A stretch of 32,000 nucleotides of DNA from Candidatus Harpocratesius repetitus (GTDB taxonomy: Archaea; Asgardarchaeota; Lokiarchaeia; Sigyniarchaeales; Promethearchaeaceae). This document shows, piece after piece, positions 22,675-31,698 of this stretch; position 1 is the stretch's first letter; each line of letters opens with the position of its first letter. The notes under the pieces were generated by a model. It worked only from the letters and a program-made list of their open reading frames with translations, did not search any database and was not told where the DNA came from. A program made the translations under genes and the position numbers. The DNA is taken from contig JAIZWK010000001.1 of the NCBI GenBank assembly GCA_021498095.1, positions 2,190,001-2,222,000 of the forward strand. The letters are read 5' to 3'.

Positions 22675-23871
22675 TTGAATAATCAATCTTCAAAATTATC
22701 TAAAATTGTATTTATCTTACTAATGATTTCATTTGCTAATGGCTTTTTCTTTGGTTTTCTTTATTCTAATGAGGGTGATTTACGAAATAATCATAAAATT
22801 GAACATCTAAATTCAGAAAATATAAATAAAATGATCCAATCCCCTCTAAAAGCAGATTTAGATAATCCAATAATCGCTGATCATAGAATTGCAAATATAG
22901 TTCGCTTAGATCAAATTCCTGAAACAGCTATTGAGCAGGCTAAACAAGCTCTTCATATTGCTTATCAACACACTTCACATGGATCACAAATTATTAGTGG
23001 TATGAATTATCTTCCAAATTTTAAGGAAAATAATGGGGGAACTCTCGGTTTGTACGCATGGAATGATGGACCTTTAGAAGGGGCTCTTGATATTGATGAT
23101 TACTTTGCAGATGGGGGGGATTTAGGTCATTTAGGTGATTTAACGTGGGCAGAACAAACTAGAACATATTTAGATGATTCTAATCATGCAGATGTTAATG
23201 TAATTATGTGGTCTTGGTGTGGTGGCGTCTCCGATAACACAGAAGAAGGAATAAATACTTATCTAAATGAAATGAATTCACTTGAAAATGAATATCCAAA
23301 TGTTTTATTTATTTATATGACAGGTCACGCAGATGGCTCAGGTCTTGAAGGTAATTTACATATAAGAAACCAACAAATTCGAGATTACTGCATAGCTAAT
23401 AACAAAATTCTCTATGATTTCTATGATATTGAATGTTACAATCCTGATGGAGATTATTTTGGTGATAAATATATGACAGATGCTTGCGACTACGATTCCG
23501 ATGGAGATACATACCCAGATTCAAATTGGGCAGAAGAATGGCAAGAAAATCACACAAAAGATATTGAGTGGTACGAGTGTAGTCCTGCCCACGCTTCAAC
23601 CGCTCATGTAATGGGTAATATGAAAGCATATGCAGCATGGTGGCTTTTTTCAGTTCTTGCAGGATGGAATTCAACTATAACATCAACAACTACTTCTTCA
23701 AGCAGTTCATCAACTTCATCTGATTCAACTAATGATACAAGTAACTCACAAAATGCTGATACATCTGATAATTTATTTGATAATAAACCTGTGATAATTG
23801 GTTTGGGATTTACTATGGGGATGTTTGTTCTTTTGGGAGGTGTGTATAGCTTAATAAAGAAAAATTGGTAA
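22675..23871 (+). CDS. Secreted/surface protein with an SGNH-hydrolase-like domain, Ser/Thr linker and C-terminal membrane anchor
   Basis: N-terminal hydrophobic signal/TM; HTSHGSQ, MWSWCG, IYMTGH, DFYDIE and a DxDxDG loop (DYDSDG); TTTSSSSSSTSS linker; final TM followed by KKNW. The SGNH call is tentative. Confidence 0.7.
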   Translation: MNNQSSKLSKIVFILLMISFANGFFFGFLYSNEGDLRNNHKIEHLNSENINKMIQSPLKADLDNPIIADHRIANIVRLDQIPETAIEQAKQALHIAYQHTSHGSQIISGMNYLPNFKENNGGTLGLYAWNDGPLEGALDIDDYFADGGDLGHLGDLTWAEQTRTYLDDSNHADVNVIMWSWCGGVSDNTEEGINTYLNEMNSLENEYPNVLFIYMTGHADGSGLEGNLHIRNQQIRDYCIANNKILYDFYDIECYNPDGDYFGDKYMTDACDYDSDGDTYPDSNWAEEWQENHTKDIEWYECSPAHASTAHVMGNMKAYAAWWLFSVLAGWNSTITSTTTSSSSSSTSSDSTNDTSNSQNADTSDNLFDNKPVIIGLGFTMGMFVLLGGVYSLIKKNW

Positions 23872-23914: not shown

Positions 23915-25255
<1,341 letters not shown>

Positions 25256-25462: not shown

Positions 25463-26242
25463 ATGTTTCGTGTGGTTAAAGATAAACTTAATCAAATCAT
25501 TAAATTTCTTTCAGAAGGAATGGATGAACTATCTGATACTTTAGAATCAACTGCCAAAGCAATCAATGCATTTCAAAAATCTTTAGTTAAGGTAAAAAAA
25601 GATCTGAAGCGAGTAAAGGAAATAAAAAACAAAGAAGGAACTACGGCAGTTACAGTGGAAAAAACTGCACCCTTATTAGGGAGATCAAAAGGTAAAGAAG
25701 CTGCAAAAGAGAAAGCTGCCTCGCTTTTATTTAATATGCTTTCTGGTGGAAAAGCGGAGATATCTTCGACTTCTCCAGCTACTGTTTCAAGTTCATCTGC
25801 AGTTAAGACACCTTCTGGATCGCCAAAAGCTGGATCTCCAAGTGGACCACCTAAAGCAGGACCTCCAAGTGGACCACCTAAAGCAGGACCTCCAAGTGGA
25901 CCACCAAAAGGACCTCCAAGTGGACCACCATCAAGTCCTCCTGGAGGAATGCCTGCACCTCCAAAAATGCCTCCCGCAGCATCAAAAGGTTTACCTGCAC
26001 CTCCAAAAATGCCTCCTTCAGGACCTCCTAAAACTGGGCCTTCAGCTCCACCTAGTGGTTTGCCAAAACCTCCAAGTGTTCCTCCTACAAGTCCCCCAAA
26101 AATTACTCCTCCAAGTGCACCTCCATCAGCATCAAGTACAGCTCCAAGTACAGCAGCAGCTTCAAATGCTGGATTAGGAGGTTTGAGGGAGGAAATGTTA
26201 AAGGAATTAGATAGGCTTAAAAAAATAATGCGAGGAACTTAA
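25463..26242 (+). CDS. Proline-rich protein: N-terminal coiled coil, Pro/Gly/Ser repeats and a C-terminal amphipathic helix
   Basis: aa ~4-55 form a heptad-like helix; aa ~117-222 contain GPPSGPPKA and PAPPKMPP repeats; the protein ends LREEMLKELDRLKKIMRGT. Confidence 0.85.
   Translation: MFRVVKDKLNQIIKFLSEGMDELSDTLESTAKAINAFQKSLVKVKKDLKRVKEIKNKEGTTAVTVEKTAPLLGRSKGKEAAKEKAASLLFNMLSGGKAEISSTSPATVSSSSAVKTPSGSPKAGSPSGPPKAGPPSGPPKAGPPSGPPKGPPSGPPSSPPGGMPAPPKMPPAASKGLPAPPKMPPSGPPKTGPSAPPSGLPKPPSVPPTSPPKITPPSAPPSASSTAPSTAAASNAGLGGLREEMLKELDRLKKIMRGT
25832..25930 (+). repeat. In-frame tandem repeat, 27-nt unit GGACCTCCAAGTGGACCACCTAAAGCA (GPPSGPPKA)
   Basis: Units 25832-25858 (1 mismatch), 25859-25885, 25886-25909 (24 nt) and 25910-25930 (21 nt). 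Confidence 0.95.
25952..26016 (+). repeat. In-frame direct repeat, 23 nt identical (PAPPKMPP twice)
   Basis: CCTGCACCTCCAAAAATGCCTCC at 25952-25974 and 25994-26016. Confidence 0.9.
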
Positions 26243-26248
26243 TTAAAA

Positions 26249-29134
26249 TCATTTAATTCTTTTCTTTTTTATTCTCATTTCGATTATTTTCTGAAGATCT
26301 CTATGAAATTGTTGAATTTGTACAGAACATTCAAGAATTGAAAGAATTTTCTGATCTAACTTAATTTTTTCTTTTCTTTGAATATCTTGACTAACTGGTA
26401 AGAATTCGATTTTTAGAATGTTTTGGGATAACGCTATCAATTCTTTTTTCTGAGAAACAGTTAATTTTTCAATTTTTAAAATCATTATTTTTGCTATATC
26501 GAAACTTGCAGTATCGAGAGCTCCACCTCCAAAATTAGTTCTGCCATGCAATTCTATGCTAAAAGGAAATAGTGAAGATAATAAAATAGCTATAACTAAA
26601 TTTCTATCGTTAGAATATAAAGGAAAAAGATCTAACTGATAAAATGTATTATTTGCAATAATATCTGGTTTAGTAAGAACGACTCGAAAAGTATCATTGA
26701 ATATCTTTTGAATATAAATATTTTGATAAATTTTGGTTTTTGATTTTTTAGAAATATCATTCAACTGGCTTTTTTCGGTTTTTGGTTTAAGACAATACCA
26801 TGAATTTGGATCTTTCTTATATTTTTGATGAAATGATGCTAGATTATTGATACCTTGGATAATTCTTCCCCGATTTGCACCTTTTTTGATTGTAATTCTT
26901 TTTGATTCAGCATATTCAATATATTCCAAGGTATGATAAAATCCTTGCTGTTTAAGTTCCATTTTAGTCAAATTTGTATAGAAAAGATATGTATTTAGAT
27001 CCTTATTATCAAGTAATGGAATATTTACCTGTTTAGGAGATAATAAAAATGGACGAAGAACTTGATCTTCAAGAATAAAAGTATCCCCATAACCATTTTT
27101 ATAAGAATTATCTGAAACTTTTCTTAACACAAAAAAATCGTTGCAGTTAGTTGTGATTCCTCTTGTAATTTTTCCGTAATCGCCCAAATATGCCAATTTT
27201 GAACCCAAAAGACTTCTAAAAACAAAAAAACTTTTGGGTGCAATAAAAAAGTAATTTCCCCATTGATATCCTTGATAAATAATATCAGATATATTTGGTC
27301 TAATTCTGTTTTCGTTTTTTCTTTCGTTCGTCCAATTAAACATAGTCATTGAAGAGATCTGGATTAATCTATAGGACATATCTTTAGAATTTATTATGGA
27401 CCACTTACTAAAAGAATTAGAATTGTTAGTATGGTTTTTAATTAAATAGGGACTTTGATTTTTTATTTTAATTTGATTCCACAATTCTTGGGAAAGAATT
27501 AGTTGAAGGAATGGCTTGAAATCTTGAAAATCTAATAAATGAAATGGTTTGTTCCAGCGAATAAAAGAATTATTTACTTCAAATGTTGGAAGAAGGAATT
27601 TTTCTTCTTTGTTTTTTCTTATTTTACTAAAAAATGATATTACTGTATTGATCTCTGCAAATTTGAACGAACGGGCTGAATTATCAGCTATTTGCCATAT
27701 TTTCATGAAACGGAGTAAAAATTCTTGAAATTGATAGCCATATTTAACATTCATCCATGAATTAGAAGTGATGAATGATAAAACACCGTAAGGGGATAAT
27801 AATTCGGCGCTATGCAGAAAAAAATACAGGCTGTAATCCATATGATTGTTGAAATCTATTTTAAATTGATTCTTGAATTGAATTAATTTTTTGTTTAATT
27901 TATCTCTATATTGCTCAGGAGAAAGAAAAGGTATGCTTCGCATATCACGCAAGTCTCGATGGCGAATGTATGGAGGATTACCAATTATAAGATCAAATTT
28001 AATAGATTTATTTGGTAATTTTTCATTGAATTCAAATAAATAATCTGCTTGAATTAAATGGACAGAATGATTAATAAATTCTTGAATTTGATTGAGATTT
28101 CTCTCAAATATCAAGAATAATACGCACCAAATTCTAAAATTAGTTATATAAAGTGCAGTTAAACGTAAATCGCATCCGAATATTTGAAAATTTTTTAATA
28201 ATTCATGATAATCTTTAGGATTATTAAATGAGGGGATAATAAATTTCATTAATTGGAGAAATCTAATAATAAAGGCGCCAGATCCACAAGATGGATCTAA
28301 AACATTAAATGAATTTGATAGAAATAATCCTTCTTTATTAAAATTTTGATTTGAAAGTATTTTTTTTCTAAAATTCATGATTTCATTTTGGTTAATTATA
28401 AATTCATTATCATGTTTTGATTGAAAAACGCGTTGAAATAATAAAATAATCCATTTTTCTGCATTAATTCGCGTATTTTTTGTGAATTTATCCGAAATAT
28501 TCAAAATGTAATATACTAAACTAAATAGAATCGAATATGATACTTCTGCCAATGGAGAGAAAAATGTTCCACTATGAGCTAGATCTTGCTCTTCATTTAG
28601 AATTATATGTTGATAAAAGTAATCTAAAAATGCAGGAGTTATTTTAGTTGTAGAATTCGAGTTATTTTTATGTAAATCAGAAGATTCTTTTATATTATAT
28701 ATAATCGATGATTTTTGTAATTTTTGAAAGCCTTTAACTATATCTGAATTAACAAAAATCGGTTGTTCTTCTTTATTTTCATGTTTTTGATACTGAAATA
28801 TCTCTGGAAGTACATCCTTCTCACAATGGAATATATCTGAAAGTTCTTTTTCGAATGCCTGTTCATTAACAAGATAAAGTTGATCAAGATTTGATTGATC
28901 CTGTTTCTCGAAAAGAATTGAAATAATATTTCGAGAATTCTTTTGGGATTGCAATTTTTGATGCTTTGTTGACTTCAAAATCATAAAACCCACAAATCTT
29001 AAGAAGAATAGATTAATTCGATCTATATTTTGCTTTATGATCAAAGTTTTATCTATACTCACATTCATCCTTTGAAAATTAATCCATTTTTTACGGATAG
29101 TATCAAGTTGTTGGATCCATTCCCTAATATCCAT
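26249..29134 (-). CDS. Large N6-adenine DNA methyltransferase, Eco57I/Type IIG-like, with a C-terminal target-recognition region
   Basis: VLDPSCGSGAF (SAM motif I), IIGNPPYIRH (motif IV), SGTFFSP (YTP-like), FITSNSW and RGITT...FF; 961 aa. Confidence 0.85.
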   Translation of the reverse strand: MDIREWIQQLDTIRKKWINFQRMNVSIDKTLIIKQNIDRINLFFLRFVGFMILKSTKHQKLQSQKNSRNIISILFEKQDQSNLDQLYLVNEQAFEKELSDIFHCEKDVLPEIFQYQKHENKEEQPIFVNSDIVKGFQKLQKSSIIYNIKESSDLHKNNSNSTTKITPAFLDYFYQHIILNEEQDLAHSGTFFSPLAEVSYSILFSLVYYILNISDKFTKNTRINAEKWIILLFQRVFQSKHDNEFIINQNEIMNFRKKILSNQNFNKEGLFLSNSFNVLDPSCGSGAFIIRFLQLMKFIIPSFNNPKDYHELLKNFQIFGCDLRLTALYITNFRIWCVLFLIFERNLNQIQEFINHSVHLIQADYLFEFNEKLPNKSIKFDLIIGNPPYIRHRDLRDMRSIPFLSPEQYRDKLNKKLIQFKNQFKIDFNNHMDYSLYFFLHSAELLSPYGVLSFITSNSWMNVKYGYQFQEFLLRFMKIWQIADNSARSFKFAEINTVISFFSKIRKNKEEKFLLPTFEVNNSFIRWNKPFHLLDFQDFKPFLQLILSQELWNQIKIKNQSPYLIKNHTNNSNSFSKWSIINSKDMSYRLIQISSMTMFNWTNERKNENRIRPNISDIIYQGYQWGNYFFIAPKSFFVFRSLLGSKLAYLGDYGKITRGITTNCNDFFVLRKVSDNSYKNGYGDTFILEDQVLRPFLLSPKQVNIPLLDNKDLNTYLFYTNLTKMELKQQGFYHTLEYIEYAESKRITIKKGANRGRIIQGINNLASFHQKYKKDPNSWYCLKPKTEKSQLNDISKKSKTKIYQNIYIQKIFNDTFRVVLTKPDIIANNTFYQLDLFPLYSNDRNLVIAILLSSLFPFSIELHGRTNFGGGALDTASFDIAKIMILKIEKLTVSQKKELIALSQNILKIEFLPVSQDIQRKEKIKLDQKILSILECSVQIQQFHRDLQKIIEMRIKKKRIK

Positions 29135-30771: not shown

Positions 30772-31698
30772 TTAGACATATATTGGATCTGGTTCAATAC
30801 CCGGGCTGATTAATAATTTCATTGTTTTTTTTAAGATATTAATACTATTCTTCATTTCTAATGAAACTTGTTCAGGAGATTTCCACACTACATACAATGG
30901 GTACGTCTTACCTTTTTTCTTTATAAAAAATTTAGAAAAATATATTTTACAATCATTGATATTGATTTCTAATTCGCTAATGATATTCAGTGATTCATCG
31001 ATTTTTTGCAGATAAAATAAGATTTGATTATTTAATTCTCTATCAATGTAGATATTTTCTGAGAAAATTGCACCTACTTGATAGAAATTAGAGGTAAAGA
31101 GAAATATTTCGTTAATTTTCCAATTAGATGCAAAATTTCTCAATAACATCTTTACTGGTTGTCTATATTCCATTTCTTCAAATATCGGATCCGAAAAGGC
31201 TGATATAATTGAGATTGGATGCTTGATTGATGTGTTGAAAAATTGATATTTAAAATTTTTTGAATCAAATAAATCTATAATCTTTTTTTGATAAGTAGAA
31301 GCTATTTTATTATATTTTGAAGAATTAGGCTCATCAAATTTATGAAAAAAAATAGAAAACATTTGGAGATGAGATAAATTAGAATTTCTGATTAGTTGAT
31401 TTATAAAATGAATGTTTTCTTGAAATCGTTCTTCATCTTGGATATCAATAACTAAAATAGCTAATTCAACATTATTTAATTCCGATTTTTCATTTTGAAT
31501 AATAAATTCGCGAAAATGAATTTGGCCTGGATAATCCGAAATTATTAAATGATTTCCAAGAAATTCAGAAAAATAGTGCTCGATATTGGTAGTAGGAATA
31601 TTATTGAAATAAGATTGGTAATCACCTCTTAAAATATGGATAATTGATGTCTTTCCTGCATTATCTAATCCTAAAAGAGCTATTTTTTCTAGAGCCAA
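30772..31698 (-). CDS. Small Ras-superfamily GTPase (Arf/Rag-like) with a C-terminal roadblock/longin-like domain
   Basis: G1 GLDNAGKT, G2 PTT, G3 DYPGQ, G4 HKFD, G5 TSI...SIISAFS, then a ~130-aa C-terminal alpha/beta region; TTG start. Confidence 0.9.
   Translation of the reverse strand: MALEKIALLGLDNAGKTSIIHILRGDYQSYFNNIPTTNIEHYFSEFLGNHLIISDYPGQIHFREFIIQNEKSELNNVELAILVIDIQDEERFQENIHFINQLIRNSNLSHLQMFSIFFHKFDEPNSSKYNKIASTYQKKIIDLFDSKNFKYQFFNTSIKHPISIISAFSDPIFEEMEYRQPVKMLLRNFASNWKINEIFLFTSNFYQVGAIFSENIYIDRELNNQILFYLQKIDESLNIISELEININDCKIYFSKFFIKKKGKTYPLYVVWKSPEQVSLEMKNSINILKKTMKLLISPGIEPDPIYV

Follow-up and report, generated by a model that had tools for sequence, protein, structure and literature searches.

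Short binding elements held on flexible spacers are known from several systems. In the bacterial proteins ZipA (a transmembrane segment, a P/Q-rich linker and an FtsZ-binding domain) and SspB (a dimer with a flexible linker and a ClpX-binding C-terminal peptide), the element is carried by an anchored or oligomeric body, and in CdvA of the Crenarchaeota (PF18822) a membrane end is followed by a coiled coil, a linker and a terminal docking peptide. Ena/VASP proteins combine an EVH1 domain, a Pro-rich region, the GAB/FAB elements and a tetramerisation coil, and WH2 proteins (WASP, WAVE, WIP and thymosin beta-4) contain a short amphipathic helix with a motif of the LKK(I/V/T) type. Finally, in ESCRT-III proteins of the Vps2/24/46 class, including their Asgard versions (Lu et al. 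2020, PMC7240154), a short amphipathic helix known as the MIM1 tail stands at the extreme C-terminus behind a disordered linker. Here we describe a gene at positions 25463-26242 (+) of a 32,000-nucleotide stretch of DNA (the window, corresponding to positions 2190001-2222000 of a closed 4.36-Mb Lokiarchaeia genome with about 30% GC), whose 259-residue product can be compared with each of these systems.

No known organisms are more closely related to eukaryotes than the Asgard archaea, and we know of no membrane tether described for their actin or ESCRT machines, nor of any account of how these machines are positioned at the membrane; to our knowledge, no CdvA has been recognised in them either. 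The gene encodes a real, conserved protein, of a family for which no description was found in the literature searched, and this family is single-copy, Asgard-specific and vertically inherited. Its architecture is likely that of a tether bearing a docking helix; the identity of the docking partner is a matter of more tentative proposals, which are weighed below. New in this work are the existence of transmembrane-anchored orthologues, a small partner gene (c0), a motif match between the C-terminal helix and the tails of ESCRT-III proteins, and the joint absence of the helix, ESCRT-III and the MIT domain of the ESCRT ATPase Vps4 from one family of genomes.

The comparison with the known systems also brings out clear differences. 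Although the tail occupies the same place as in ESCRT-III proteins, the protein has no Snf7 core, and its helix is longer, with both faces conserved and with residues specific to the family (L241, R242, L246, I255 and M256). The likeness to CdvA is greatest in the transmembrane-anchored orthologues, but there is no PRC barrel here, and the CdvA peptide is a beta-strand which binds the CdvB winged helix, not a helix itself. ZipA and SspB are unrelated in sequence, and the binding element in the present case would be a helix of 20 residues, with a putative docking role.

Architecture and conservation of the protein

The open reading frame (ORF) runs from ATG to TAA, and the structure was modelled with AlphaFold2 on an alignment of 22 sequences, which gave three helices separated by regions predicted to be disordered (pLDDT denotes the predicted local distance difference test). 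The features of the gene are the following:

25463-26242 (+): whole gene, 259 residues; soluble form ("type A") of a pan-Asgard protein with a tethered, putative docking helix (ORF call and homologues)
25466-25633 (+): long N-terminal helix, residues 2-57, coiled-coil-like according to AlphaFold2 (pLDDT about 96) and profile; presumed module for oligomerisation and c0 binding
25694-25750 (+): short conserved helix, residues 78-96, motif AAxxLFxxLSGG (conservation; AlphaFold2 helix 78-93, which includes KAASLLFNMLSG)
25751-26170 (+): disordered spacer rich in Pro, Ser, Ala and Gly, residues 97-236 (pLDDT 41-66)
25826-25929 (+): tandem DNA repeat of 27 bp, four copies, KAGPPSGPP units (Tandem Repeats Finder: period 27, 4.0 copies, 93% matches)
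25991-26017 (+): LPxPPK(M/L)PP core in the spacer, residues 177-185 (conservation; fits the MIM2 core pattern phi-P-x-phi-P)
26174-26233 (+): C-terminal helix (the tail), putatively a docking helix, residues 238-257, GLxxLR[DE]EMLxELxRLKKIMRG (conservation; AlphaFold2 pLDDT about 90)

The modules named in a preliminary description of this DNA (an N-terminal coil, a short helix, a Pro-rich tract and a terminal helix) are therefore all present, as judged by the ORF, the AlphaFold2 model and the composition, and the location it gave for the terminal helix, 26183-26227 (LREEMLKELDRLKKI, residues 241-255), is exact. It was also right in noting that no run of three or more prolines occurs (the longest here is two, PPPP being present in some homologues) and that there is no EVH1 domain, the N-terminus being a single long helix and Pfam assigning no domain in a search with the whole protein. 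In particular, the Snf7 core (PF03357) gave no Pfam match in this protein, which is not an ESCRT-III protein. Compared with the PDB, the family profile matched, over the N-terminal helix, designed antiparallel coiled coils and nothing else (E 9.5e-8). A CdvA-like coiled coil was considered and discarded as a chance coiled-coil match, since PF18822 is not matched by type A and is reached by one of 14 transmembrane-anchored (type B) sequences at 20.3 bits, below the cut-off of 30.

The spacer consists of 34% P, 20% S, 13% A and 11% G, and its 27-bp repeat represents a recent expansion of spacer length. Two copies of PSAP/PTAP (at residues 193 and 217) were considered as ligands of ESCRT-I and set aside as compositional, their positions being unconserved and the motif being absent from 8 of the 54 homologues. 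An ORF of 143 residues in another frame (25746-26177, +), with LQVDH repeats, lies inside the Pro-rich region; it arises from the CCA/CCT-rich repeats of the DNA and is no gene.

All 54 homologues, whose labels include Promethearchaeota and Lokiarchaeia, are annotated as hypothetical, and the three helices are conserved throughout, far above chance. The mean column identity is 0.84 in the tail, 0.64 in the short helix and 0.61 in the N-terminal helix, vs 0.45 in the spacer, which differs among orthologues in length and composition. In the tail, L241, R242, E244, M245, E248, R251, K253 and I255 are invariant and variation is confined to positions 247 and 250, so that the conservation of the terminal helix, on which the preliminary description had made its proposal depend, was found. 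The short helix has L89 and L93 invariant and A86 and F90 nearly so, and its motif finds no match in any other ORF of this genome. Within the spacer, the LPxPPK(M/L)PP core stands out (column identity 0.76 vs 0.45 for the whole spacer), P184 and P189 being invariant and P181 and P185 nearly invariant.

Exactly one copy of the gene is found in 34 of 41 related genomes, and the corresponding Atlas cluster (357 members, without a Pfam family) comprises Promethearchaeota only. A profile of the N-terminal part (A3) is matched in 65 of 201 Asgard genomes, which make up the Loki order plus three other families: the Odinarchaeum group with genomes of 1.3-1.4 Mb, a Hermod-labelled group and one more. 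A search for fused forms by means of this profile brought up stand-alone members (172-249 residues) and no others, which is weak evidence given that 8,000 candidates were scored.

The shared C-terminal helix and its two kinds of carrier

A profile restricted to the tail (A5) was detected in 98 of 121 Asgard genomes. In most of the other Asgard lineages (genome families f6, f7, f9 (Thor-labelled), f15-f18 and f24), the tail belongs to the type B protein (254-558 residues), which is made of an N-terminal transmembrane helix with basic residues after it, a conserved coiled-coil block, a spacer and the same tail; from the positive-inside rule, everything beyond the transmembrane helix should be cytoplasmic. 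The alignment of types A and B with hhalign is limited to the last 25 columns (98.6%, E 1.2e-15), and on this sequence evidence the last 20-25 residues are a homologous module common to both. Because there is essentially one tail-bearing gene per genome (in each of four Loki-family genomes, a single significant tail match), types A and B look like orthologous replacements which differ in how their N-terminus is anchored. The spacers of the tail-bearing orthologues may be GPP-, PT- or E/K/V-rich, and, since spacer composition is not conserved, there is no conserved profilin site and the spacer is best seen as a tether.

The type B gene adjoins rpiA in 15 of 16 loci, drawn from seven families, and its location in this old housekeeping block argues for vertical inheritance. 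Its neighbours (rpiA, a T2SSE-like ATPase, a tRNA-intron endonuclease, HycI and IF-2B) are housekeeping genes which give no functional clue, and the neighbours found in Odin, f14 and f23 (NUDIX, LysRS, an HflX-type GTPase, parts of an ECF transporter and a weak longin match) are equally uninformative. A search with the tail region in a set of 5.8 billion proteins yielded 34 candidates and 2 matches only.

In type A lineages, a second gene enters the picture. This gene, c0, is an orphan ORF of 74-98 residues which is usually the direct neighbour of the type A gene; 14 such loci, from five families, were seen, and the two genes may be convergent, divergent or co-directional. Its phyletic profile is that of type A (f1, f3, f5, f10, f14, f21 and f23), and in type B families it was not found, except in 1 of 17 cases in f9. 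In the present genome c0 is single-copy (C1:2240546-2240818, -; = L098:4544-4807; ~88 residues) and lies 24 kb downstream of the type A gene, 18.5 kb past the end of the window. Its predicted fold is confident (pLDDT 92.7, predicted template modelling score 0.83), with a helix, a strand, a helix and three strands. No convincing relative in structure or sequence was found: sequence searches of Pfam and the PDB were empty, the best Foldseek match in the PDB had an E of 0.14, the best in a wide VIA-align comparison had a Z of 4.5, and the ESM Atlas gave a TM-score of 0.65, solely to parts of large unrelated proteins. An exhaustive profile search (1.84 billion proteins) returned 26 small stand-alone representative clusters and no fusions. 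The N-terminal helical module of type A is specific to lineages that also have c0, and, because the tail is common to lineages without c0, it is on this type-A-specific N-terminal part that c0 should act.

These observations can be joined in a mechanism of tethering and docking. The N-terminal coil would oligomerise and, together with c0, would take over the localising role which the membrane anchor may play in type B; the Pro-rich tract would serve as an extended flexible tether, its length drifting by gain and loss of repeats; and the invariant C-terminal helix would be a short motif by which the protein docks onto a conserved partner shared by the tail-bearing lineages. Being common to all of them, this partner can be neither c0 nor the protein's own N-terminus. 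A near-invariant, phylum-wide end helix joined either to a membrane anchor or to a dedicated small partner offers a concrete handle on how Asgard actin or ESCRT machines are positioned at the membrane.

Candidate partners of the terminal helix

Besides the gene described here, the genome contains, elsewhere, four Snf7/ESCRT-III genes and one Vps4 with an MIT domain (G000:C1:1847531-1848757, G000 being this genome). The four ESCRT-III tails read DLEKELARLRKK, DLEAEIKKLKQ, DLEKEIHKLKE and ALKKEIEKLKK, and the tail of our protein EMLKELDRLKKI; they share the skeleton [DE]-phi-x-x-E-[IL]-x-[KR]-L-[KR] and an upstream phi-P-x-phi-P, which takes the form of an LPxVP-type motif ~20 residues before the ESCRT-III tails and of LPAPP before EMLKELDRLKKI. 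The pattern E[IL]x[KR]L[KR][KQE] occurs in the last 25 residues of 6 of 3,851 non-overlapping ORFs, namely those of the four ESCRT-III proteins, the present one and a single further ORF, a count that is indicative only, as the pattern, although derivable from the ESCRT-III tails alone, was chosen after the resemblance had been noticed. The same skeleton is present in the ESCRT-III tails of 5 relatives and of 12 more distant Asgard families. With respect to the MIM1 consensus, (D/E)xxLxxRLxxL(K/R), the tail has M at the first L and E at the R, the latter being also found in all Asgard ESCRT-III tails examined. Asgard ESCRT-III tails have been read as MIM1-like and their proline motifs as MIM2-like (PMC7240154, PMC8970359), the MIM2 core pattern phi-P-x-phi-P being used here as defined in PMC8970359.

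The phyletic distribution of the tail adds a further element. In family f19, which is a single genus with five genomes 75-83% complete (G059, G069, G086, G109 and G127), actin is present, and the tail, ESCRT-III (Snf7), MIT and c0 were not found. The MIM1-like skeleton, the location at the very end of the protein, preceded by a disordered linker that contains phi-P-x-phi-P, and the lack of the tail in the ESCRT-III- and Vps4-less f19 make the Vps4 MIT domain the most concrete candidate for the docking site, albeit, as a motif-based proposal, a rather doubtful one. If so, the protein would concentrate or regulate the ESCRT ATPase at a site fixed by its N-terminal end. Taken as a whole, a tether-and-dock adaptor with Vps4 as its partner is put forward, tentatively, as the best explanation. 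With similar reservation, one may envisage that the protein and its transmembrane-anchored orthologues are the missing Asgard membrane link to a eukaryote-type machine, either as a functional counterpart of CdvA that positions ESCRT-III/Vps4 or as the first membrane-to-Lokiactin tether, and that c0 in Loki, Odin and Hermod forms with type A a new two-protein localisation module which replaces the anchor.

Several results weigh against this assignment. On a 15-column matrix of the tail, the ESCRT-III tails rank 19, 197, 331 and 355 of 3,851, with negative scores, and a search of the proteome with the tail profile did not retrieve ESCRT-III, the likeness being one of motif level only. The tail is conserved over about 260 degrees of the helix circumference (L241, R242, E244, L246, I255 and M256 too), which is beyond the one face that MIM1 needs; the phi-P-x-phi-P pattern readily arises by chance where a sequence is rich in Pro; and a comparison across lineages gave no clear signal of co-variation between this tail and the ESCRT-III tails. 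Furthermore, family f22 (seven genomes) has ESCRT-III and a divergent actin, and neither the tail nor a type-B-like gene beside rpiA was found in it, and in four single-genome families ESCRT-III is present and the tail was not detected. The phyletic patterns are clean for neither actin nor ESCRT-III and single out neither partner. Physical contact between c0 and the N-terminal part is itself a prediction from genomics. A complex prediction of the Vps4 MIT domain (residues 1-80) with the tail (residues 225-259) gave ipSAE values of 0.04 and 0.09, against a mark of 0.32, and counts as evidence neither way.

In another reading, the tail docks on some other conserved Asgard hub, such as a trafficking component (a Sec23/24-like coat, a longin or roadblock protein, or a small GTPase) or the N-domain of another AAA+ protein, and our protein would act as its receptor, of membrane or scaffold type. 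We regard this as quite possible, if somewhat short of probable. That both faces of the helix are conserved points to a deep groove or to a site for multiple partners, and the tests concerning MIT and actin (motif match, phyletic profiles and synteny) are all indirect, none of them singling out either. Moreover, tail-like helices occur in a few other proteins. One, LSGLKSEMLNELNRLKSIG, belongs to a Sec23/24-like protein of 555 residues (L146:3365-5029, -; G021:C44) with a zinc ribbon, a trunk and a beta-sandwich (Sec23_trunk 33.7 bits, Sec23_BS 36.3 bits), where it is placed at the point at which the helical domain would follow; another, ILRDEMLEELNHLKEVI, is internal to a family of ~151 residues in f3, with a Cys-rich C-terminal half and no Pfam family (L147:5866-6318, +; G031:C134; frames of about 155 residues in nine other f3 genomes). 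Additionally, a small GTPase of 179 residues has the fifth-best tail-like C-terminus in the present genome. The extra carriers are, however, few and lineage-restricted, no others being found at E<=5 in the four Loki-family genomes; the GTPase scores low (7.7 bits), and its matching segment may just be the helix with which the GTPase fold ordinarily ends; and synteny points to no specific partner, the type B neighbours being housekeeping genes. As a separate observation, a protein of ~1,090 residues (G000:C1:3042503-3045787, +) contains an internal partial tail motif, SALRDEMLKEN, which recurs in G011:C1 near 1901163; these matches are weak (E 0.04 in an hmmsearch of the ORF set, and 0.06 in G000 and 1.6 in G011 in the genome search).

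A third reading is the one from which the preliminary description started, that of an actin regulator akin to VASP or to WH2 proteins. Its modular part, in which an oligomerising coil is followed by a Pro-rich, flexible tract and by a terminal helix with a function, has stood; the proposed kinship has not. VASP_tetra (PF08776) gave no match at E<=10 with the whole protein or with the two helices alone, and WH2 (PF02205) none at the same threshold with the whole protein, residues 225-259 or residues 75-100. A phmmer search with residues 215-259 and a whole-family profile, both run against all PDB chains, returned no VASP, WH2-protein or thymosin chain. The protein shares with Ena/VASP the oligomerising coil, the flexible Pro-rich region, short functional helices and a stretch, EEMLKELDRLKK, that locally resembles the VASP coil, but the order of the modules is reversed, with the coil at the N-terminus. 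Similarly, its amphipathic tail and LKK(I/V/T)-type motif recall WH2, as does the likeness of the LFxxLSGG helix to the LLxxIxxG part of that domain. The LKKI proposed as a WH2-type motif, however, lies inside one continuous predicted helix (238-257) and does not follow an extended linker, LKK stands three residues closer to the MLxxL core than it does in WH2, and no LKKV-like motif follows the LFxxLSGG helix. A profilin-binding polyproline tract conserved in the family was not found either, given the short proline runs here and the varied spacers. The known WH2-like motifs of Asgard archaea are the LVDV/LKDV linkers of gelsolins, unrelated to the tail helix. The protein is thus not a member of the VASP or WH2 families, the analogy of architecture remaining, and a tempting over-reading is corrected: a coil, a proline-rich tract and an LKK helix do not amount to descent from either.

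Actin could still be the partner without such kinship. In this case the terminal helix, perhaps together with the LFxxLSGG helix, would bind Lokiactin monomers or filaments or an actin-binding protein, and would link actin with the membrane (type B) or with a site defined by c0 (type A), in the manner of Ena/VASP, ActA or a membrane-actin linker. In this genome, Lokiactin is encoded at G000:C1:377031-378140. The genome encodes a eukaryote-type actin (436 bits to PF00022) and two actin paralogs, and the near-invariance of the tail agrees with a partner as strongly conserved as actin; the helix ends in LKK(I), and the WH2-like motifs of Asgard archaea are known to depart from the usual form (LVDV/LKDV in gelsolins). 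In the six genera of f3, the next genes downstream, in the same direction, are PIG-L, an actin paralog scoring about 290-304 bits to PF00022 and one of winged-helix-like type, and the orthologous paralog is on the same replicon as the gene in G000 (at 44 kb) and G004 (at 71 kb). Furthermore, actin divergence is greatest in the tail-less families f13, f19, f22 and f25 (363-398 bits vs about 440 or more elsewhere). Against these points, the linkage is confined to f3, in a block that is syntenic as a whole, topoisomerase and phosphoribosyltransferase (PRTase) included, and the actin concerned is a paralog, distinct from the main Lokiactin (about 443 bits); beyond f3, PIG-L alone is again found beside the gene, in f2. 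The actin linkage, present in one family only, is suggestive at best. In addition, f19 keeps actin without the protein, the tail-less families may just evolve fast, the composition of the spacer is unconserved, there is no WH2 or VASP_tetra signal, with LKKI set within a continuous helix, and no gelsolin or GTPase gene of the four Loki-family genomes was found to carry the tail. We consider this reading unlikely, any involvement of actin being hypothetical.

Proteomic data leave the same reading as it stands. The L. ossiferum homologue is encoded at G010:C1:729373-730245 (-). In the part of the L. ossiferum Lokiactin co-immunoprecipitation table concerned (bioRxiv 10.1101/2025.11.30.690169), which uses private tags not mapped to genes, the row of the homologue could not be located, no listed row has the expected molecular mass of 26.80 or 29.08 kDa, and none of the top ~20 enriched tags is near the expected 0062x. 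As an observation in its own right, this second actin paralog (about 260-304 bits; L018:5577-6692, -, with its f3 equivalents, and G000:C1:2259716-2260804, +) belongs to a conserved cluster with the PIG-L deacetylase and a winged-helix-like gene of 111-148 residues, which in f3 lies downstream of the type A gene.

The last reading has no foreign partner: by analogy with the VASP tetramerisation coil, the terminal helix would associate with itself and bundle the ends of the tethers. Conservation of both faces is what would be expected of a helix buried in a homo-oligomeric bundle, hydrophobic residues recur at positions 241, 245, 249, 252 and 256, and the preliminary description had pointed to a gapless resemblance to the VASP coil. 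Nevertheless, about 20 residues are short for a stable autonomous coiled coil, there is no match to VASP_tetra or to VASP in the PDB, a long N-terminal coil that would serve oligomerisation is already present, and the occurrence of a similar helix in otherwise unrelated proteins fits a docking motif better, all of which makes self-association very improbable.

Neighbouring genes in the window

Convergent to the gene lies that of a 961-residue protein (26249-29134, -) with an Eco57I-type methylase domain (82.7 bits), which, together with purA (23915-25237, -), is a conserved neighbour in the close family f1. A Gtr1/RagA-like small GTPase (30772-31698, -; 68.9 bits), a typical Asgard eukaryotic signature protein, has a C-terminus without the tail helix. 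Finally, a protein of 398 residues (22675-23871, +), with no Pfam family, has a hydrophobic segment at each terminus with a Ser/Thr-rich stalk between the two, and looks surface-anchored.

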